12,699 nucleotides of DNA from Promethearchaeota archaeon. GTDB taxonomy: Archaea; Asgardarchaeota; Lokiarchaeia; Sigyniarchaeales; SOKP01. The notes under the pieces are model-generated. The model made no database searches. It saw only the letters and a list, made by a program, of their open reading frames with translations, and was not told where the DNA came from. Both the position numbers and the translations under genes were made by a program. Shown here piece by piece: positions 2,755 to 12,395 of the stretch. Position 1 is the first letter of the stretch. Every line of letters begins with the position of its first letter. Location of the stretch: positions 1 through 12,699 of the forward strand of contig JAFGGO010000002.1 of the NCBI GenBank assembly GCA_016930515.1. Direction: 5' to 3'.

Positions 2755-4146
2755 ATGGAAAATATCAATTACATCCCCGAATGGACCAAGGATGCTGTAA
2801 TATATCATATCTACCCCTTGGGTTTTTTTGGTGCTCCAAGATTTGGAAAGGCCGAACAAGATACGGTTCCACGATTGGAGCAAATTCGGGTTTATTACGA
2901 TCATTTCGAAGATTTGGGCGTAAACACTATTCAATTTGGTCCATTGTTTGAATCCGAACGGCACGGATACGATACTATAGAGTATTTCAAGATCGATCAC
3001 CGATTGGGCACGAACGAAGTGTTTAAGAAAATCGTGGCTGAATTACACGATCGCAACATTAGAGTCGTTGTTGACGGGGTGTTTAACCACGTGAGTCGCG
3101 AGTTTCCATCCTTCAAGGATGTGCAAGCATATCGAGAAAATTCCTGGAGAAAACATTGGCACTTTATCGATTTCTCCAAGGATAACCCTCGCGGCGATGG
3201 TTTCGATTATAAAACTTGGGAAGGCCATTATAACCTCGTCAAGTTGAACCTTGCAGAGTCAGATGTTAAGAACCACATTTTTTCTGCGGCTCGATATTGG
3301 CTCGGGGAGATCGGTATCGACGGTTGGCGGTTGGATGTTGCCTATCTACTCCCCTACGGGTTTTTACAGGAGTTTCGTAGTATTTGCAAGATGTCCAAAC
3401 CCGATTGCTTGCTTGTAGGGGAGGCAATTCATGGACCATATTCAAAATTGGTAGGATCAGCCGCACTGGACGCTGCCACGGGTTTTCAGGTGCAAAAGTC
3501 GATTTGGAGCGCGTTTAATAATCGTAACCTTTTCGAGCTCAAGGCGATCTTGGAACGATCGTTTCACCCCCAATGGGGTCAAGAAAGGAACGTGACACTC
3601 GTTAATTTCCTGGGAAACCACGATACAAACCGCATCTCGTCCCAACTGGACGATAAGCGCAACCTATACCCCGCCGTCTTGTTATTGTTTACGCTAAACG
3701 GAATCCCCAAAATATATTATGGAGACGAAATTGGCCTGCTTGGCAAGAAAATTCCCACTTCGGACGATCCCGTGAGACAAGCAATGCCACCTTACCCGTT
3801 CGACCTGTCAAAAGAGAATTTTAACTTATTAAATCATTACAAGCTATGTATAAGACTGAGAAAAAACCATCACGCATTAAAAGTGGGAAACCTCGTTTCG
3901 CTTCACGCAGGAAGTCACGAATTGGCATTCATGCGACAATCGTCGCGAGAAACCCTCTTGATCGCAATTTCAAGTGCCTCCGAAACAACTTCCATGTCGA
4001 TTCCGCTCTGGAATTTGGAATTGGAAGGTAAGATTTTCGTCGAACAATTGGAGCAAGGAGGTGCCAAGGAATATCGAGTTGAGCGTAACCGGCTTCATAT
4101 TCCCGAGATATACCCTCATTGGGGACGAATCCTAAAATTGGAATAA
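2755..4146 (+). CDS. Glycoside hydrolase family 13 (alpha-amylase/neopullulanase/cyclomaltodextrinase-like), cytoplasmic
   Basis: GH13 conserved regions: VIYHIYP, HGYDT.EY, VDGVFNH (region I), DGWRLDVA (Asp nucleophile), VGEAIH (Glu acid/base), FLGNHD (region IV) and GIPKIYYGDEIG. No signal peptide is evident. Confidence 0.93.
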   Translation: MENINYIPEWTKDAVIYHIYPLGFFGAPRFGKAEQDTVPRLEQIRVYYDHFEDLGVNTIQFGPLFESERHGYDTIEYFKIDHRLGTNEVFKKIVAELHDRNIRVVVDGVFNHVSREFPSFKDVQAYRENSWRKHWHFIDFSKDNPRGDGFDYKTWEGHYNLVKLNLAESDVKNHIFSAARYWLGEIGIDGWRLDVAYLLPYGFLQEFRSICKMSKPDCLLVGEAIHGPYSKLVGSAALDAATGFQVQKSIWSAFNNRNLFELKAILERSFHPQWGQERNVTLVNFLGNHDTNRISSQLDDKRNLYPAVLLLFTLNGIPKIYYGDEIGLLGKKIPTSDDPVRQAMPPYPFDLSKENFNLLNHYKLCIRLRKNHHALKVGNLVSLHAGSHELAFMRQSSRETLLIAISSASETTSMSIPLWNLELEGKIFVEQLEQGGAKEYRVERNRLHIPEIYPHWGRILKLE

Positions 4147-4766: not shown

Positions 4767-5903
4767 ATGAACGAATTTTTTATTAAAACCTACAATTACC
4801 TAGTCGACCATATCGAAACGGCCATGAAGGGAATTGACAAGAACACGGTAACAAATTGCTTGGAGTTGTTAAATAAGGGTAAAACAAACAAGAGAGTCAT
4901 CGTGGATGGCGCGGGACGGTCTTTACAAAGCGTTCTCTTGCTTACCAACGAGCTTGACAACGCGTATGGAATACGAGTGAACCAAGTAAGCAACGCAAAC
5001 TTGAGACCATTGAGAAGTGGTGACATCTTCATCGTCAATTCACGATCAGGAAGCGGCAAATCGTACGAAAGCGCCATGTTCGCTAAGAAAAAAGGTTTAG
5101 ATGTTATATTCATAACGGGCAACGAAAAATTAAAAGACGATTTCGAAAATGTCATACTAGTCAAGGCGAATTCGAATCGAGATGTTAAATGTGCCCCGCT
5201 TGGAACAGAGTTCGAACAAGCCAGCGCCGTGTTTTGCTCCTGTGTTGGATACGCTTATGGGGAATCTGAAATGACCAAGGCTTACGATTTGTACTCGAGC
5301 GTCGCCGTTGAAGGAATGCGCTCGAACTTAAACAATCTAAAGCGCGAGGAAAAGATAATCGATAACTTCATATCGCTGATAACCGAGTTGTTAGATCCAC
5401 AAAACGAGAGCGTGGTTTATTTTAAGGGTGTTGGGAGCAACGAGATCATAGCCCGCGTTATTGCAATTAGGTATGGGCATTTAAACAAAGAGGGAAAGAA
5501 GGATCTAAATGTAGTATATGAGGGACACTGGAAGAGCAGGAAGAAAAATGATCTCGCCATTCTCATGAGCGGAAGTGGAGAGACGGATCAAATCTTAAAA
5601 TACGCCCACCAAGCTGGGGACATTGGGATGAATTTATTCACGATCACCTCGTTCAAGGATTCGAGCCTGGCTCGGAGAAACAAGTGGTATCGAAATTACG
5701 CTGGGAATCTCATCATCGAAGGAAGACCGGAAATGCTTAGCTATTATAATAAATCTATTCATAACATCGAAGAAAAATTCTTTCCACAATTCGAGTTAAA
5801 CACCTATGTGACGCTTGACGCCCTCCTTGCTGCAATAGCCAAGGAAAACGATATTACAGAGGACGATATGAAAAAAACCCATCGAGATAAGGAATTAGAG
5901 TAA
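4767..5903 (+). CDS. Tandem SIS-domain sugar-phosphate isomerase; both halves resemble 6-phospho-3-hexuloisomerase (HxlB/PHI)
   Basis: N half: VIVDGAGRS, GDIFIVNSRSGSG, VIFIT, APLGTEFEQ. C half: VYFKGVGSN, DLAILMSGSGET, ITSFKDSSLA, QFEL...LDALLA and a C-terminal EDDMKKTH...LE matching the PHI ending. It is about twice the normal PHI length. Confidence 0.8.
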   Translation: MNEFFIKTYNYLVDHIETAMKGIDKNTVTNCLELLNKGKTNKRVIVDGAGRSLQSVLLLTNELDNAYGIRVNQVSNANLRPLRSGDIFIVNSRSGSGKSYESAMFAKKKGLDVIFITGNEKLKDDFENVILVKANSNRDVKCAPLGTEFEQASAVFCSCVGYAYGESEMTKAYDLYSSVAVEGMRSNLNNLKREEKIIDNFISLITELLDPQNESVVYFKGVGSNEIIARVIAIRYGHLNKEGKKDLNVVYEGHWKSRKKNDLAILMSGSGETDQILKYAHQAGDIGMNLFTITSFKDSSLARRNKWYRNYAGNLIIEGRPEMLSYYNKSIHNIEEKFFPQFELNTYVTLDALLAAIAKENDITEDDMKKTHRDKELE

Positions 5904-6150: not shown

Positions 6151-7980
6151 ATGAGTGAAGACATGTTTATAATTGAAGATTTAGAAAAAATCACCGGAGT
6201 TACATTTAAACGGATTGCAATGCCTTATTACACGATCGTAAGTAATTGGTATATGAAAGACAATGAGGATCGCGTTGTGGCTTTAAGCGTAGACCTGGCG
6301 GAGTTAAACTTGAACTCTGAGAAGCTCAAACTGTTTGGGGAAAGCATTAAAAAGTTGTCTTTTATAGATAAGCTTCTCCTAAAACTCCCGGAGAGCGGAC
6401 TTTTTCCCGAATGGTGTGTAAAATTTAAAAACATCAAATCCTTAATCGTTAAAGACAGTCACTTAACGAGGTTTCCAGAATTATTCAGACAATTCAAGAA
6501 CCTCGAAGTGTTAAACTTGGAGGGAAACGATTTAAAATCACTTCCAGACTGGTTTGCGGAACTTGATAAGATCACCGAACTGAATCTAAGCAACAACAAA
6601 TTCGATCAATTACCCGATCTTTTAACCATGGCGTACTTAAAAAAACTGGACATCGAAAGTCCTACCCCATTATCTGATTTGACAGAAGAAACGCTCAATA
6701 AAATTGCAGAGCTACTTAAAAAAGGAGTGGAAATTAATAGTTGGTTAGTAAAAGCGCTTTTCGAGTTAAAAGTATCCAAAGAACAAGTGAAAGTTCTTTC
6801 AAACATTCGAAATGAGGCGGGAAAAAATGTAGTTAGGATTGATCTAATGGATTCAAAGGACGATCAATACACCATAAACGGACAAGCTCGTTTCAATTAC
6901 TATCAATGCGTTCACGCCCGCGTGTGGGACGGAAAAATACGACAAATCACTGCAAACGAATATAACTTGGTAAATTTACCAAAGGATCTGGCAAAGATAG
7001 AGAGTCTTGAATATCTCAGTTTGAGAGGTAATAAATTACGTACCTTACCAGATACATTTGGGAAACTAGTAAACCTCAAGGACCTCGATCTTTCTGATAA
7101 CGCACTTTCGAGTTTACCAGACTCATTTTCAGACTTAAAGTCCTTGGTAAAACTAAATTTGAATAAAAACCAATTTGTCGAAATTCCAACGGAATTATGG
7201 GCAGTAAAGGAACTCGTGGAATTAAACATGAACGATAATCCCTTAACCAGCGAGGAAATCATCGTCTCGCAAAAAGTTCCCGACTTGATCAGAAAGCACC
7301 TTCGAAAGAAAGCAACCATCAAGGTGTTCATATCACACGCTGTCGTGGATTTTGAGAAGTATCGAGTTGCTGAACTTTCAGAATTTCTGGAACACCAAAA
7401 AGAGATATCCCAAGTCTTTTTCTGCGAGGAAAATTTAGCAGGAAACATCGACCAATGGATGTTGGAAGCCGTTCAAAAATGTCATCTCGTACTTTTTATC
7501 GCCACATATAAGTCTGTTTTTGATTCTCCAGATTGCGATAACGAGCTCAAATTAGCGGATAAATTTTCGATCCCCGTGATTCCAATAAAAGGTGAGGATG
7601 TAGAATGGTTCGATCTTGCTGAAAAAAACCTTTCAAGGGAATTGGGATTGGAATTCGATGGAAAAAACTTCGAAGATTTTAGCGAAAACCTCTATAAATA
7701 CATTGAAAATGTCAAGCGAGAAATAAATTTACTGGAGAAGGAAGAAAGAAGGTCTGGAGTGGTGGATGTATACGAGCGTTTTCGGCTCATCATGGACGAC
7801 AAGCTGAGAGAATTCGACAAGAAGATAGAGCGCAAGTTAAGAGAGATTACCAAGGATTTCAACGAAAAAATAGGTGAACTTGAAAAAAAGATCGATTATC
7901 TGACATTTAAAAACATGCAGGGAAGTTCTGATCTTCAAGAAAGGATATCGGAGCTAAAGAAGCGATTATTAGGTCCTTAA
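6151..7980 (+). CDS. Leucine-rich repeat protein with TIR domain and C-terminal coiled coil (LRR-LRR-TIR-CC)
   Basis: Two blocks of LxxLxLxxNxLxxLP repeats (e.g. LEVLNLEGNDLKSLP, LEYLSLRGNKLRTLP, LKDLDLSDNALSSLP). TIR box 1 KVFISHA starts at residue 391 (nt 7321), followed by LVLFIAT, SPDCDNEL (Glu465) and IPVIPI. The last ~90 aa are charged and heptad-like. A GTGA RBS-like motif precedes the ATG. Confidence 0.9.
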   Translation: MSEDMFIIEDLEKITGVTFKRIAMPYYTIVSNWYMKDNEDRVVALSVDLAELNLNSEKLKLFGESIKKLSFIDKLLLKLPESGLFPEWCVKFKNIKSLIVKDSHLTRFPELFRQFKNLEVLNLEGNDLKSLPDWFAELDKITELNLSNNKFDQLPDLLTMAYLKKLDIESPTPLSDLTEETLNKIAELLKKGVEINSWLVKALFELKVSKEQVKVLSNIRNEAGKNVVRIDLMDSKDDQYTINGQARFNYYQCVHARVWDGKIRQITANEYNLVNLPKDLAKIESLEYLSLRGNKLRTLPDTFGKLVNLKDLDLSDNALSSLPDSFSDLKSLVKLNLNKNQFVEIPTELWAVKELVELNMNDNPLTSEEIIVSQKVPDLIRKHLRKKATIKVFISHAVVDFEKYRVAELSEFLEHQKEISQVFFCEENLAGNIDQWMLEAVQKCHLVLFIATYKSVFDSPDCDNELKLADKFSIPVIPIKGEDVEWFDLAEKNLSRELGLEFDGKNFEDFSENLYKYIENVKREINLLEKEERRSGVVDVYERFRLIMDDKLREFDKKIERKLREITKDFNEKIGELEKKIDYLTFKNMQGSSDLQERISELKKRLLGP

Positions 7981-8118
7981 ATCTGTAATCTTTTTTCCAA
8001 CACATTTTTTCCATATTAATTTTTATAAATAAGAAGTAAATTAAAATCTCGCTAACCATAATCATAATCACCTTTTATGGAAAAAGCAGAGCATAGATTT
8101 AAATCCCATAATTTAAAT

Positions 8119-8147
8119 GTGAATCAATATTATTCACTCTATATAAA
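8119..8147 (+). promoter_or_regulatory. Palindromic operator candidate (GTGAAT-N7-ATTCAC) abutting a TATA box
   Basis: Inverted repeat at 8119-8137 and TATATAAA at 8140-8147, about 30 nt upstream of ATG 8175. Confidence 0.45.
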
Positions 8148-8174: not shown

Positions 8175-8393
8175 ATGGAATTAAAAAAAAACGAGACCTT
8201 TCTCGATGCGTTGACCAAGCAAGTAGGAAAAATCGTTGATATTGTTCTAAAAAACGGCCAAATTATCAACTGCAAGGTAATATTAGCAGGTCAATTTTGC
8301 ACGCATGTTGAGAGATTAGACTCAAAAAGCTTTTACGATACTATCATCCGCAACGAGGATATAATCGCCATTGAAGTAAAAGTAAGATCATAA
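8175..8393 (+). CDS. Small Sm/Hfq-like (LSm-fold) protein of unknown function
   Basis: 72 aa with an N-terminal helix followed by L..QVGKIVDIVLKNGQIINCKV (Sm1-like) and IIRNEDIIAIE (Sm2-like). It has its own TATA box and GTGA RBS-like motif. Confidence 0.65.
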   Translation: MELKKNETFLDALTKQVGKIVDIVLKNGQIINCKVILAGQFCTHVERLDSKSFYDTIIRNEDIIAIEVKVRS

Positions 8394-8620: not shown

Positions 8621-9424
8621 ACGAAATTTATAGATCTTTCTATCCCCATTATTAATCCAGAAGAGATGCTCTTCGATCCCCCCCTCACGAGACCAAAAAT
8701 CGAATATAATGACCATCACGAGGGGGGATTAGAAATGGCGGATGCGTTTCCAGAGTTGAATCCTGAAGTACACTTGCCGGACGGTTGTGGGTGGGCAACG
8801 GAAAAGATTACGCTTGGAACGCATAGCGGAACTCACATGGACGCACCATGGCATTTTGCACCCATTCAGGATAGGAGCATAGGCGAGCGTAAGGCCATGA
8901 CTATAGACGAGTTTCCCTTGGAGTGGGGCATTGGATCCCTCGTTGTCTTGGACTGTACTGATTTCGAGGAGGGCCATGTGCTCAGGCCAGAAGAGATTGA
9001 CGCAAAATTGGAAACCATTGGCCACAAATTAAGAGAAGGGGATGTCGTTTGCGTTCACACGAACGCTCAAAAACACGTCAAATCCAGAGAATATCTCATG
9101 TACGGCGTGGGAGTTGGGAAGGAAGCAACTTTACACTTAATAAGAAATGGCGTCCATGTCGTTGGTACAGACGCTTGGTCATGGGATGCTCCATTCTCCA
9201 TTACGGCCGATAAATGGATTAAATCAGTGGAAAACAATTGTCCGGATCCTTCAATCATTTGGGAAGGTCATTTCGCAGGGCGTGATCTTGGATACTTCCA
9301 ACTAGAGAAATTAACCAACTTGGATAAAGTCCCCGCAGTTGGAGCTACCATATATTGCTTTCCCGTGAAAATCGCACGGGCGGGAGCTGGTTGGGTTCGT
9401 GCAGTAGCCACGATACCTGAGTAG
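8621..9424 (+). CDS. Cyclase family metal-dependent hydrolase (kynurenine formamidase KynB-like)
   Basis: Signature HSGTHMDAPWHF, plus VGTDAWSWD, QLEKLTNL and FPVKI...GAGWVRAVA. The first ATG is at 8666, but the family-typical N-terminus KFIDLSIPI is in frame upstream, beginning at ACG 8621. Confidence 0.88.
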   Translation, partial: TKFIDLSIPIINPEEMLFDPPLTRPKIEYNDHHEGGLEMADAFPELNPEVHLPDGCGWATEKITLGTHSGTHMDAPWHFAPIQDRSIGERKAMTIDEFPLEWGIGSLVVLDCTDFEEGHVLRPEEIDAKLETIGHKLREGDVVCVHTNAQKHVKSREYLMYGVGVGKEATLHLIRNGVHVVGTDAWSWDAPFSITADKWIKSVENNCPDPSIIWEGHFAGRDLGYFQLEKLTNLDKVPAVGATIYCFPVKIARAGAGWVRAVATIPE

Positions 9425-9491
9425 TGATAAAAATTAAATTATCTGAGTTTCGATTAAATATTTAATACTAAACACTTTTTTTCCTTATATT

Positions 9492-10592
9492 ATGATAACC
9501 CCAAATAATAAAATAGCACTGATAACAGATAGGGAGTTCGAGCGAAAACACATTCCACCTTACCCCAGACCTTCTTTTTTTTCCAACGAACATCCCATTC
9601 GGATCAAAGTTGTATTAGATTACTTGGAACAGAAAGGATTTTTTCAAGACGAGCGTATTAGGATCGAAAAGCCAACTACGGTTTCCGAAAAAATCTTGAG
9701 ACTCTCGCATTCAAAGTATAATATTGAAACGATAAAGCGATTGTCTAATTTTGGACAAGGCATCATCGGTGAGGAAGTGTTTATCACCAAGACTACTTTT
9801 GACCTCGCAAAAAAGGCAATAGGAGGCGTTATAAAGGCAATAGATCTCGTCTTGAACGAGAAAGCCACACAGTCCTTTGCTTTAGTTCGACCTCCAGGAC
9901 ACCACGCCACGAAAGAAAAATCGTCTGGATTGTGCATTTTTAACAACATCGCAACTGCCATCCTATATTTTCGAAAAGAATTTGGATACGAGAAGAAAAT
10001 TGCGATAATAGATATTGACGACCATTTTGGTGACGGAATTGCCCAATATTTTTACGAAGATCCGAGCGTTCTTTATTGCTCCATTCACGAGTTCGATTTT
10101 GAAGAGGGAGATATTGGTTTTATTAGTGAATTTGGTGATGGTGAAGGTCTGGGAACAAATATTAATTTTCCTGTTCCAATGGGAATAACCGATGGTGATT
10201 TTGTTGAGTTTACATCTTTGATAGAACCAATCTTGAAGCAGTTTCGTCCGGATCTCGTGATAGTTGCGGCAGGTTTTGACATGTATTGGAGCGATCCCGT
10301 GGGAAATTGCTTACTAACGAGCAAGACTTATTACGATTTTACAACCTGGATCTTGAAATTAGCTCGTGATGCATGCGATGGAAAGATTGTATTCGTTTTG
10401 GAGGGCGGATATAGCTTGACAGGCCTTCCTATCTGCGTTTTTTCCGTGCTGAGGGCTTTGTTGGGCGAAAAGTACGAACATCCCGAATCGGAATTCGTTG
10501 ATTTTTCTATGTTATCAAAAAGAGAGGAAGTTGACAAGATTAAGAATGTCTTACAGCGCGAATTAAGCAGATTCTGGTTCTTGAAATATTAA
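9492..10592 (+). CDS. Zn-dependent histone deacetylase-family protein (class II-like HDAC/acetylpolyamine amidohydrolase superfamily)
   Basis: E.P.R near the N-terminus, RPPGHHA, GLCIFNN, IDIDDHFGDG, SIH, G.G.G.G...N.P, AGFD....DP and LEGGY. The Zn ligands and catalytic His-His/Tyr appear intact. Confidence 0.93.
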   Translation: MITPNNKIALITDREFERKHIPPYPRPSFFSNEHPIRIKVVLDYLEQKGFFQDERIRIEKPTTVSEKILRLSHSKYNIETIKRLSNFGQGIIGEEVFITKTTFDLAKKAIGGVIKAIDLVLNEKATQSFALVRPPGHHATKEKSSGLCIFNNIATAILYFRKEFGYEKKIAIIDIDDHFGDGIAQYFYEDPSVLYCSIHEFDFEEGDIGFISEFGDGEGLGTNINFPVPMGITDGDFVEFTSLIEPILKQFRPDLVIVAAGFDMYWSDPVGNCLLTSKTYYDFTTWILKLARDACDGKIVFVLEGGYSLTGLPICVFSVLRALLGEKYEHPESEFVDFSMLSKREEVDKIKNVLQRELSRFWFLKY

Positions 10593-10600
10593 AGTTAAAG

Positions 10601-10625
10601 AAAAGAAATTAAAAACGGAAAAAAT
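10601..10625 (-). terminator. T-rich terminator candidate for profilin
   Basis: An A-rich tract on + (T-rich on -) lies in the 48 bp gap between the convergent HDAC and profilin genes. Confidence 0.4.
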
Positions 10626-10640
10626 TTCGATTTGAAATAT

Positions 10641-11042
10641 TTATACTAGCGGCGCAAGTTTCAAGGCGTAAGTCTGGACATTTAAAAGGGCGTCTCGAGG
10701 ACCTGCCGCCGGATTAATGTAACATATTAGGGCTCCCGTTCCTCCTATGGGTATGGGGGCTATTATCACGTGTCCTTTACCGGTGACGTTTGTTCCTATC
10801 TTTCTCTCCTCCGTATTCTCGACGATCATGTACTTAATTCCTTGTAACGAGATGCTCGTAATTCCCTTTTGCCCGAGTTCTAATTTAAGATTAAGCAACT
10901 CGTTAATGGCTTGCAAGTCCCCTGAAAGATCCCAGTTCTCTGTCTGCGTGATTAATGATCCGTTCTTTCCAACGATCGCCACTCCAAGCACATTTTCTTC
11001 CGCGTTTAGCAGGTCGTCTATGATATTTTCAATATCTGTCAT
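10641..11042 (-). CDS. Asgard (Loki-type) profilin
   Basis: IIDDLLN.EEN..G.AI.GK.G..ITQTENW, QGIKYMIVENTEERKIGTN.TGKGHV, PIPIGG.GALI.Y.NP.AGPRD.L.NVQ.YA closely match my recollection of characterised Lokiarchaeal profilins. An alternative ATG lies at 11057. Confidence 0.9.
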   Translation of the reverse strand: MTDIENIIDDLLNAEENVLGVAIVGKNGSLITQTENWDLSGDLQAINELLNLKLELGQKGITSISLQGIKYMIVENTEERKIGTNVTGKGHVIIAPIPIGGTGALICYINPAAGPRDALLNVQTYALKLAPLV

Positions 11043-11057
11043 TTTAATCCCAAACAT

Positions 11058-11134
11058 TTTATTAGTTTATTACCATTTATATAACACCAAACAAATTTAA
11101 ATAATAACATTTAAAAAATTCTAGTGTTTCAAAC
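11058..11134. promoter_or_regulatory. Compact divergent promoter region (profilin / ABC transporter)
   Basis: 77 bp AT-rich spacer with TTATATAA on the minus strand (11084-11077) and TTTAAATA (11096-11103) / TTTAAAAA (11110-11117) on plus. Confidence 0.5.
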
Positions 11135-11689
11135 ATGGTCATGCGATTATGGAAAAAAGCTTGGAAAATGAGCACGAGAGACAAGAAGACGTTTACCGTG
11201 TTCGCCTTGCTTTACACGTTTTTAACGTTCACGACAAGTTTCATGCTGGATTACGTGATTACATCGCCCGATCCGCTCAGATCAGCCTTTTTTTACCCAT
11301 TAGTTATTATCATCGTGGCATCCTTGGTCCTCACCCTGCTTTACGCGTGGTTGACTGTACGAAGGAACAGAAAGGTTTGGGCAACACTCAAGTGCATTGG
11401 GTGGCGTAGCAGCGAGATCAGCTGGCTGATATTGGGTTATATCTTTTACACGACTATCATGGGACTGTTCATCACGGTGGAATTCTGCCTTCACTGGGTC
11501 GCCATCACGGGATACATCCACTCGGCGTTTCCAGACCTAATTACCGAAGTCGAACCCTTGGTATCCCTTCAAGCAGTTGGCTTGACGGTTGCCATCTTTA
11601 TTGCGGTTCAATTCGTGGGATACATTGCGGCACGAGGTAGAATAACCAAGGTCAGGCCAATGTTAGCACTGAAACGAGTAGGGGAATGA
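11135..11689 (+). CDS. FtsX/MacB/LolE-like ABC transporter permease, minimal 4-TM form
   Basis: Basic amphipathic N-terminal helix and four hydrophobic segments. VRRNRKVWATLKCIGW...I matches the FtsX-domain R.REIA.LKA.G motif, and the C-terminus is AAR..ITKVRP..ALK. It lies directly upstream of a LolD-type ATPase. Confidence 0.8.
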   Translation: MVMRLWKKAWKMSTRDKKTFTVFALLYTFLTFTTSFMLDYVITSPDPLRSAFFYPLVIIIVASLVLTLLYAWLTVRRNRKVWATLKCIGWRSSEISWLILGYIFYTTIMGLFITVEFCLHWVAITGYIHSAFPDLITEVEPLVSLQAVGLTVAIFIAVQFVGYIAARGRITKVRPMLALKRVGE

Positions 11690-11702
11690 GGAGGTGAAGT
11701 AA

Positions 11703-12395
11703 ATGCCAGTAGATAGAGATACCATGATAGAAGTCACGGACGTGAACAAGGAATATCGCCGTGCAGGTGCCATCATTCACGCTCTCGTCGACGTGAACCT
11801 CACGATAAAATCAGGAGACTTTGTCATGATTCAAGGTCCGACGGGATGTGGTAAATCCACTTTACTCAATGTAATGAGCGGATTGGACCTTCCAGACAGC
11901 GGCAGGATTATATTTGACGGAGAGAACATCGCTCGCGCCAAGGAAGACCGCCTGTCCAAGTTAAGGCGTCAAAAAGTTGGATTCGTCTTCCAAGACTATA
12001 ACTTGATCAACACCTTGACCGCCATGGAAAACATCGAAGCCTTGCTTTGGCCAACCGTGCTCAGTTCTCGGGAGATCGAGAATCGTGCCATTGCCGCCCT
12101 TAGAGATGTGGGGATGCTCGAAAGGAAGGATCACTTTCCCGTGGAAATGTCGGGAGGTGAGAAGCAGCGAGTTGCGCTCGCCAGGGCAATCGTGAGCAAG
12201 CCACGAGTGATCTTTGGAGACGAGGTCACGGGCAACCTCGACCCGGAAAGCGAGACTATGATAATGACCCTGCTCAAGAAGATCAACGAAGAATACGAAA
12301 CGACCATGGTCATCGTCACGCACCGCGAGAACGTGGCAAAATTCGGCAACGTTCAGGTGAAGATGAACAAGGGCAAGATAGTCAGCGTGAAATAA
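11703..12395 (+). CDS. ABC transporter ATP-binding protein (LolD/MacB/FtsE family)
   Basis: Walker A GPTGCGKST, Q-loop GFVFQDYNL, signature MSGGEKQRVALARA, Walker B/D-loop IFGDEVTGNLD and H-loop VTH. A strong RBS (GGAGGTGA) precedes the start. Confidence 0.95.
   Translation: MPVDRDTMIEVTDVNKEYRRAGAIIHALVDVNLTIKSGDFVMIQGPTGCGKSTLLNVMSGLDLPDSGRIIFDGENIARAKEDRLSKLRRQKVGFVFQDYNLINTLTAMENIEALLWPTVLSSREIENRAIAALRDVGMLERKDHFPVEMSGGEKQRVALARAIVSKPRVIFGDEVTGNLDPESETMIMTLLKKINEEYETTMVIVTHRENVAKFGNVQVKMNKGKIVSVK

Follow-up and report, generated by a model that had tools for sequence, protein, structure and literature searches.

What would an Asgard archaeon use a protein for that carries leucine-rich repeats (LRRs) ahead of a TIR domain? 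The question is raised by a gene at positions 6151 to 7980 of a 12,699-nucleotide stretch of contig JAFGGO010000002.1 (hereafter the window), which belongs to a Promethearchaeota archaeon (assembly GCA_016930515.1). Few immune modules are common to bacteria, plants, and animals; TIR domains are one of them, and to our knowledge their use in Asgard archaea is essentially undescribed. A survey of Asgard defense finds TIR only inside named bacterial-type systems, a 2026 preprint treats Asgard LRR proteins as being of unknown function, and our search of the literature for a paper describing the LRR-TIR family found none. The gene provides a concrete Asgard case of a putative sensor joined to TIR, with several oddities of its own: a glutamate without its usual tryptophan, a predicted amphipathic helix at the C-terminus, and a dedicated Sm-like neighbor. 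We favor, with a probability of roughly 0.5, the reading that the LRR-TIR protein is a single-chain sensor-effector of the conflict or defense type that belongs to an Asgard-specific family.

Gene and Product

The gene is real, and its product is a soluble protein that joins LRRs to a divergent TIR domain. Its parts are as follows.

6151 to 7980, plus strand: whole LRR-TIR-helix gene, ATG start, 609 amino acids plus stop (open reading frame list and translation)
6151 to 6402, plus strand: N-terminal cap region, residues 1–84, a helix with beta strands that run on to the first solenoid (from the full-length model's secondary structure)
6403 to 6630, plus strand: LRR block 1, residues about 85–160 (Pfam LRR_8, E=2.3e-10 at 94–151, plus LRR_4)
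6631 to 6975, plus strand: variable middle segment, residues 161–275, helices followed by a beta-hairpin that caps LRR block 2 (model elements H179–217 and E228–267)
6976 to 7248, plus strand: LRR block 2, residues 276–366, four 23-residue repeats (best Pfam LRR_8 stretch 285–342; repeat register and per-position entropy)
7249 to 7317, plus strand: conserved linker helices, residues 367–389, ...QKVPDLIRKHLRKKAT (invariant P377, I380, and L384)
7318 to 7728, plus strand: TIR domain, residues 390–526
7531 to 7545, plus strand: DCDNE motif, residues 461–465 (sequence)
7729 to 7977, plus strand: predicted C-terminal amphipathic helix, residues 527–609 (model helices 530–588 and 594–607)

Upstream of the ATG at 6151 there are two sense codons and then a stop. 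A Pfam scan of the full 609-residue protein places LRR_8 (E=5.9e-29) over blocks at about 85–160 and 276–366, in agreement with the two LRR blocks of the original prediction, which had been made from the nucleotide sequence; the same kind of scan finds no family of its own for the middle segment, residues 161–275. TIR_2 is not listed by the full-length scan, despite a match when residues 380–530 are scanned alone (33 bits against a cut-off of 28 bits, E=9.8e-8, residues 392–488), and PF13676 is among the precomputed annotations of the protein. KVFISHA lies at residues 391–397. The segment match and the predicted TIR strand-helix order bear out the TIR domain that had been proposed. The maximum Kyte-Doolittle mean over 19 residues is 0.93 and there is no hydrophobic N-terminus, so the protein is soluble and has, as foreseen, no transmembrane (TM) segment. 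A search for a Walker A motif found none in the protein, which confirms the lack of a P-loop, and no NTPase family of the NB-ARC or NACHT type was found in it by Pfam, NCBIfam, or PADLOC scans.

A model of residues 376–609 built from 48 family sequences (predicted local distance difference test, pLDDT, 83.6) has the strand-helix order of a TIR domain followed by a single long helix, and its TIR part is a flavodoxin-like five-strand alpha/beta fold that can be superposed on solved TIRs. The best structural matches of the TIR model are mostly enzymatic TIRs, namely SPARTA, RUN1/RPV1, RPS4, SARM1, TIR-1, and AbTir, and the nearest structural clusters outside the protein's own are bacterial and archaeal TIR_2. 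When solved structures were searched by sequence with the TIR, with the TIR plus tail, and with the family profile, no TIR chain was reached at E≤10; the TIR of a more canonical paralogue gave a single weak hit, to a TIR-like N-terminus (9m0n, E=0.077), and reached no other TIR chain. Because solved TIRs are unreachable by sequence, the TIR of the LRR-TIR protein is a divergent one, and the placement of Glu465, the last residue of the DCDNE motif, therefore depends solely on motif, on secondary structure, and on aligned ranges. In the full-length model (pLDDT 84.7; predicted template modeling score, pTM, 0.70) there are two LRR stretches, each with its own cap. A Foldseek search with this whole model puts the LRR of Chlorobium tepidum Roco first (E=3.2e-12), followed by Leptospira LRR proteins, SHOC2, and LRRK2. 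As modeled, the LRR thus resembles the cytosolic 23-residue type of Roco and SHOC2, unlike the ectodomain of a Toll-like receptor (TLR).

A Variable Sensor Half and a Conserved Output Half

Conservation is distributed very unevenly along the protein. Across 86 orthologues, column entropy is 2.04 bits in the N-terminal cap, 1.71 in LRR block 1, 2.13 in the middle segment, and 1.18 in LRR block 2, and it is 0.82 in the linker, 0.58 in the TIR, and 1.38 in the tail. The syntenic orthologue in the metagenome-assembled genome (MAG) of a relative (locus L010) is 59% identical over the whole protein, the N-terminus being 37% and the TIR 83% identical, and six flanking genes are 67–92% identical to their copies in that MAG. 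Judged from these alignments, the N-terminal half evolves faster than the neighboring genes and the TIR is conserved as well as they are.

The family is sizable and its distribution is confined. There are more than 300 full-length homologues with the same architecture at 40–60% identity. When residues 380–609 were compared with 1.84 billion cluster representatives, just 395 matched at E≤1e-3, and the TIR clade is therefore a narrow one. In a 201-genome sample of the phylum, the clade is present in 20 of the 40 genomes of the same family and in 2 of the 3 of a sister family in the same order, and it was found in 0 of the 158 genomes from 25 other families. Within genera its presence is patchy (13/16, 2/10, and 0/4 genomes). 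The host genome (4.0 Mb, 94% complete) encodes ten TIR-bearing open reading frames (ORFs): seven LRR-TIR proteins, a WD40-TIR, a TIR-LRR, and one TIR_2-bearing ORF on contig C32. The WD40-TIR paralogue (C94:5864-7276, minus strand, locus L008) has one in-frame TAG within its TIR match, which may mean a pseudogene, two separate genes, or an error in sequencing. Several genomes have LRR-TIR genes in tandem, two or three in a row (L011 8001-11986; L022 1-4933), and L020 is likewise tandem, with TIR matches at 1274-1786 and 3574-4086.

The same TIR also occurs behind other N-terminal parts. In a scan of 69 long clade members, LRRs turn up in 52, LVIVD propellers in 8, TSP3 repeats in 5, and WD40 in 2. 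As it is fused to LRR, LVIVD, WD40, and membrane parts, the clade TIR acts as an output domain that is portable. Such an evolutionary pattern is like that of receptor families and suits a sensor-effector exposed to diversifying pressure. The combination of a variable sensor with a conserved output, the paralogy, the patchy and order-restricted distribution, and the portability of the TIR leads us to favor the sensor-effector reading.

If that reading is correct, the variable LRR half would bind a trigger that comes most likely from a virus or mobile element, whether a protein or another macromolecule, and binding would free or cluster the TIR domains, with the C-terminal helix serving as an element of self-association or of autoinhibition. 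Clustered TIRs would then build a composite active site at Glu465 and cleave a nucleotide substrate, which may be nicotinamide adenine dinucleotide (NAD+) or possibly NAD-capped RNA or nucleic acid; a related substrate is proposed as possible because the motif is DCxxE, with a cysteine like that of plant TIRs and no tryptophan. The result would be growth arrest or a signal. In the subfamily that carries it, the Sm-like neighbor may act as a modulator or a downstream partner.

A Glutamate without Tryptophan

The chemistry of the proposed effector depends on how Glu465 is read. Its codon is GAG (7543-7545), and it lies within S459-P-D-C462-D-N-E465-L466, in the helix that connects strands C and D; the TIR-wide E75 has the same location. 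Toshchakov and Neuwald describe the TIR-wide pattern S69-x-W-C-x-x-E75-L (PMC7075850), which S459-x-x-C462-x-x-E465-L466 matches. By interpolation of aligned ranges, SARM1 E642 falls within about 5 residues and RUN1 E100 within about 2 residues of Glu465 (residue 90 of the model). The glutamate is invariant in the 86 orthologues; over 265 TIR segments of the clade, glutamate and cysteine are each present in 258 and the aspartate in 223, and tryptophan in 0. Asp461 stands in place of the WxxxE tryptophan, and the other residues found there in the clade are A, N, P, E, or K, never W. Cys462 occupies the position of the plant-TIR cysteine. The remaining conserved core motifs of the TIR are FISH..D, the BB-loop glycine, S..C..EL, and IPxIPxKG. 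The original prediction was right to put a glutamate at the position of the catalytic one; at the WCxxEL position that it named, the helix reads DCxxE. Because the clade signature is DCxxE, the chemistry cannot be read from known TIRs.

Several observations weigh against the sensor-effector reading, some by way of its chemistry and others by way of its setting. NAD+ cleavage, cyclization, and NAD-RNA decapping by AbTir reportedly need the WxxxE tryptophan (bioRxiv 10.64898/2026.10.06.757174; PMC10641520), and this hallmark of an NADase TIR is missing, with Asp461 here and tryptophan in 0 of the 265 clade segments; since the tryptophan is always replaced, NADase activity is not to be assumed. 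Furthermore, E75 is more than 90% conserved in the TIRs of TLR1/2/6/10, for which NADase activity is unreported (PMC7075850), and Glu465 is therefore no proof of enzymatic activity. As to the setting, the flanks are housekeeping genes that are syntenic in the relative's MAG (L010), and no defense island is present at L012, L013, or L014, three of the four further loci whose flanks are long, their neighbors being unrelated and mostly metabolic. PADLOC models match neither the LRR-TIR protein, nor one paralogue, nor the Sm-like ORF. Finally, the GC content of the LRR-TIR gene equals that of its flanks, with no compositional break in the window, and there is thus no sign of a mobile island.

The one-component cytosolic sensor-effector that was originally predicted therefore keeps its anatomy, is favored by the seven paralogues, the patchiness, and the fast-evolving N-terminal half, and loses some of its chemistry, with neither a defense island nor PADLOC to support it. 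The proposed depletion of NAD+ or production of a cyclic ADP-ribose-type signal is the weaker part, given that the tryptophan reportedly needed in AbTir is Asp461 here and that the glutamate alone is shared with TLR TIRs. If the TIR is active, the sequence space of known TIR enzymes widens; an inactive one would be a TIR of the scaffold type from a prokaryote.

The latter possibility deserves separate treatment. The TIR may be non-enzymatic, with the LRR-TIR protein acting as an adaptor or scaffold in a network of TIR-TIR contacts and Glu465 having a structural or interface role; in related archaea the network would include receptors with an ectodomain, a TM helix, and a TIR, much as TLRs recruit MyD88-type adaptors. 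We regard this as unlikely, if worth serious attention. The missing WxxxE tryptophan is as expected of such a TIR, and so is a TIR surface as extremely conserved as this one (0.58 bits), since many protein contacts would have that effect. E75 is kept in non-enzymatic TLR TIRs, where it is the sole exposed conserved residue (PMC7075850). Candidate receptors exist in the clade: of 265 clade proteins scanned for hydropathy, 35 have TM-like segments, and about eleven of these 35 have an N-terminal hydrophobic segment, an ectodomain of 750–1230 residues, and a single TM helix 5–20 residues before the TIR (P0168, P0178, P0189, P0198, P0206, P0218, P0229, P0236, and P0257 are included). Their ectodomains are LVIVD or TSP3 and their starts are signal-peptide-like, with the TIR of the same clade following directly after the TM helix; two are named as Helarchaeota and Lokiarchaeota MAG proteins. 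Further clade members have 4–8 TM helices ahead of the TIR, and P0121 and P0123 are tandem-TIR proteins, which would also suit a scaffold. By sequence, then, the clade does include a TLR-like topology, in which propellers stand where TLRs have LRRs; it lies outside the host genome. In the host genome itself, however, the ten TIR-bearing ORFs were searched for TM-like segments and none was found, nor was any membrane receptor partner found there. Moreover, Cys462 and Glu465 are kept in 258 of 265 segments, divergent members included, which looks more like an active site than an interface; the top structural neighbors are enzymatic TIRs; and no death-domain or kinase-type downstream module is seen. 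We therefore retain the enzymatic sensor-effector as the preferred reading.

The C-Terminal Helix

The original prediction ended the protein with a coiled coil that drives assembly. The full-length model does place a long helical element there, made of helices 530–588 and 594–607, and the long helix is the part of that claim that stands. Hydrophobic periodicity in the tail peaks at 3.6–3.67 residues, not 3.5, with a power of 1.87 (1.88 over 40 relatives) against 0.24 for shuffled sequences, and hydrophobic residues are spaced 3-4-4 across 541 to 584. A canonical heptad coiled coil was rejected, since in the best register no more than 10 of the 24 a/d positions are hydrophobic. The tail is better described, on the model, as a predicted amphipathic, hendecad-like helix, which could serve in bundling, in restraint of the TIR as in bacterial coiled-coil (CC)-TIR proteins, or in surface binding. 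Among the matches listed, it exceeds the tails of all homologues but one by about 23 to 50 residues (25–50 in 22 that were aligned).

Comparison with Known Systems

Enzymatic TIR effectors such as SPARTA (TIR-APAZ with a short Argonaute), SARM1, and RUN1/RPS4 are of the same kind, in that a TIR and a sensor are united in one chain or complex. Unlike these, the LRR-TIR protein has DCxxE rather than WxxxE and no sequence-level match to solved TIRs; its sensor is an LRR, without Argonaute, ARM-SAM, or NB-ARC, and its helix is C-terminal. In bacterial CC-TIR proteins (AbTir and TcpB/BtpA) the helix is N-terminal, WxxxE is intact, and there is no LRR, whereas the helix of the LRR-TIR protein follows the TIR and has a periodicity of about 3.6–3.67. 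In contrast to Thoeris ThsB, there is no ThsA neighbor, as an SIS gene and the 72-residue Sm-like ORF adjoin instead, and no ThsB_TIR or PADLOC match.

A candidate TLR/NLR-like immune receptor was the label originally given to the protein. What remains of the label is the order of domains: as in TLRs, the LRR is N-terminal to the TIR (85–366, then 390–526), and the glutamate is of the E75 type found in TLR1/2/6/10. Unlike TLRs, however, the protein has no signal peptide or TM helix and has short 23-residue repeats of the Roco/SHOC2 type rather than an ectodomain horseshoe; no adaptor proteins are known for the family, and the clade relatives with an ectodomain, TM helix, and TIR use LVIVD propellers. 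Nor does it have the central NB-ARC or NACHT P-loop NTPase of NLR/TNL STAND receptors. It had been suggested that the protein bears on how innate immunity arose in eukaryotes; this is unsupported, because among the genomes searched the clade is found in one order, the LRR is Roco/SHOC2-like, and the nearest structural clusters are bacterial and archaeal TIR_2. Independent domain shuffling had been called equally possible; with no special tie to eukaryotic TIRs, it is now the better reading.

Roco proteins (C. tepidum Roco, LRRK2) offer another likeness, in that a cytosolic LRR leads through a conserved linker to an alpha/beta output domain. The resemblance is confined to the LRR part, as the LRR-TIR protein has no Roc GTPase, COR domain, or P-loop. 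We considered the idea that a TIR replaced a Roc GTPase and found it unsupported: a tblastn search with block 2 plus linker finds at least 26 LRR ORFs resembling block 2 in the host genome, none with a P-loop, and the conserved linker is confined there to the TIR paralogues. Lastly, DSR-type SIR2 proteins likewise unite an NAD-linked effector domain with a repeat sensor and lack an NTPase, a design shared by eight SIR2-TPR proteins of the host genome, and the difference is that the effector fold of the LRR-TIR protein is TIR, not SIR2.

A Recurrent Sm-Like Neighbor

A small gene stands downstream of the LRR-TIR gene in the window, and its homologues elsewhere include the following.

8175 to 8393, plus strand: Sm-like ORF of 72 amino acids in the window, a recurrent neighbor of LRR-TIR genes (homologues beside LRR-TIR genes elsewhere)
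10193-10408 of L010: Sm-like ORF
12045-12266 of L011: Sm-like ORF
10026-10256 of L014: Sm-like ORF
5001-5213 of L021: Sm-like ORF
5001-5222 of L022: Sm-like ORF
1763-1939 of L023: Sm-like ORF

Wherever the flank is long enough, which is the case at 12 loci in at least five unrelated contexts, an Sm-like ORF adjoins an LRR-TIR gene; we report this as a new observation and count it in favor of the sensor-effector reading. Homologues lie beside LRR-TIR genes at L010, L011/L019, L014, L015, L017, L018, L020, L021, L022, and L023; L016 ends at a contig edge and is outside the count. The ORF is 70–76 residues long across loci and is directly downstream of the LRR-TIR gene except at L017, where the orientation is divergent. 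The gap between the two genes is 60 bp in L021 and 60–70 bp at loci outside the window. The flanks of the pair vary: a His operon and a type IIG restriction-modification gene at L011/L019, DnaJ and EamA at L014 and L023, and at L022 three tandem LRR-TIR genes before the Sm-like ORF and a gene for an 807-residue WD40 protein after it. In the window the Sm-like ORF probably has its own promoter, to judge from the sequence; an oligo-T run at about 7990–8011 follows the LRR-TIR stop, and by eye there is a TATA-like TATATAAAA at about 8139–8147, some 28 bp before the Sm-like ATG.

The Sm-like family comprises 23 clusters among 5.8 billion sequences and is archaeal wherever a name is given. Of its members, 13 of 21 match Pfam LSM at E≤0.05 (best E=1.2e-5); the window copy has just a weak match, to SM-ATX (E=0.014), and the L011 copy reaches 22.9 bits for LSM, below the cut-off of 23.4 bits (E=7e-5). 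The family profile weakly matches LSm6, SmD1, and Hfq chains (E 0.045–1). The gene is single-copy in the host genome, against seven LRR-TIR genes, and with the window copy as query it is found in 4 of 61 genomes of the family. On these grounds an obligate partnership with the whole LRR-TIR family was rejected, and the genomic pattern makes the Sm-like ORF a candidate partner for one LRR-TIR subfamily. An apparent LRR/Sm-like fusion, P0292 (102 residues, on a 1-kb metagenome contig), was also set aside, as it contains only the last 28 Sm-like residues and probably represents a truncation or deletion or an assembly artifact.

The neighbor raises an explanation that has nothing to do with immunity. 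The TIR and the Sm-like protein may together act on RNA, through removal of NAD caps or through 2',3'-cyclic nucleotide monophosphates (cNMPs), or on nucleotide pools, with an endogenous LRR ligand and a physiological role. An Sm/LSm-like small protein as the constant neighbor of a subfamily fits such a regulator, as does a housekeeping, syntenic locus without a defense island, and the LRR is of the type found in the cytosolic scaffolds Roco and SHOC2. In the TIR of flax L7, the cysteine at the position equivalent to Cys462 is reported to be required for cNMP synthetase activity (bioRxiv 10.64898/2026.10.06.757174). We nevertheless hold this explanation to be quite improbable. The Sm-like gene, with its presence in so few genomes and its single copy beside seven LRR-TIR genes, leaves the family as a whole unexplained; its LSM match lies under the Pfam cut-off; and patchy, multi-copy, fast-evolving sensors are atypical of housekeeping regulators. 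In addition, NAD-RNA decapping by AbTir reportedly also depends on the tryptophan (bioRxiv 10.64898/2026.10.06.757174).

A further reading, more speculative still and the least probable of those considered here, is that the DCxxE clade of Loki-type Asgard archaea is a distinct TIR system with non-canonical chemistry, in which LRR-TIR proteins and the proteins with an ectodomain, TM helix, and TIR would share an output and one subfamily would pair with an Sm-like ring protein as a two-gene cassette. The Sm-like partner would then hand RNA or NAD-capped RNA to the TIR, or would bind the product of the TIR. Were this true, the prokaryotes most closely related to eukaryotes would possess a TIR pathway of a new kind.

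Genomic Context

The genes that surround the LRR-TIR gene in the window encode an aminotransferase, an alpha-amylase-family enzyme, an SIS protein, the 72-residue ORF, a cyclase, a histone-deacetylase-family enzyme, profilin, an FtsX-like protein, and an ABC ATPase. The profilin gene (10641-11057, minus strand; Pfam Profilin, E=1.1e-5) encodes a eukaryotic signature protein and is 84% identical to the L010 copy. Given this gene and homologues named Promethearchaeota or Lokiarchaeota, the window belongs to a Loki-type Asgard archaeon, its Asgard origin having been predicted. The order SIS, LRR-TIR, small ORF, cyclase, histone deacetylase, profilin, FtsX-like, and ABC ATPase is common to two MAGs, with window positions 4767-5903 and 8666-12395 corresponding to L010 6527-7663 and 10577-14317. 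A search for tRNA genes in the window found none. Among sequencing data sets listed as containing the stretch there is no RNA set, and the single DNA set is a sediment metagenome, which may be its source. Elsewhere, a HEPN-nucleotidyltransferase pair lies upstream of the LRR-TIR gene in L014 (6153-6978), and L011, the fourth of the long-flank loci, has a type IIG N6-methyltransferase/Eco57I-like gene (12354-14429) downstream of its own LRR-TIR gene; these were the sole defense-type neighbors noticed.

The host genome also encodes eight proteins of 588–1056 residues with an N-terminal SIR2_2 domain, in seven of which C-terminal TPR repeats are detected. Their genes are as follows.

C139:21425-23188: SIR2_2 gene
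C13:2004-4607: SIR2_2 gene
C36:7640-10234: SIR2_2 gene
C130:14169-16604: SIR2_2 gene
C7:8803-11091: SIR2_2 gene
C43:5592-8759: SIR2_2 gene
C115:30159-33077: SIR2_2 gene
C100:35833-38523: SIR2_2 gene

By their domain content, the SIR2-TPR proteins are a second paralogous family in which an effector is combined with repeats, again on an NAD-linked domain, and we count them in favor of the sensor-effector reading. The C139 SIR2-TPR gene is the convergent neighbor of an LRR-TIR paralogue. A Thoeris-like pairing was considered and rejected, as this is one adjacency, there is none near 6151-7980, and a genome of 4 Mb that has some 9 SIR2 genes and some 10 TIR genes would, by our estimate, show one such adjacency by chance in about 1 case of 10. 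The C13 copy matches the SIR2 part of the PADLOC ThsA models (E=1.5e-9).

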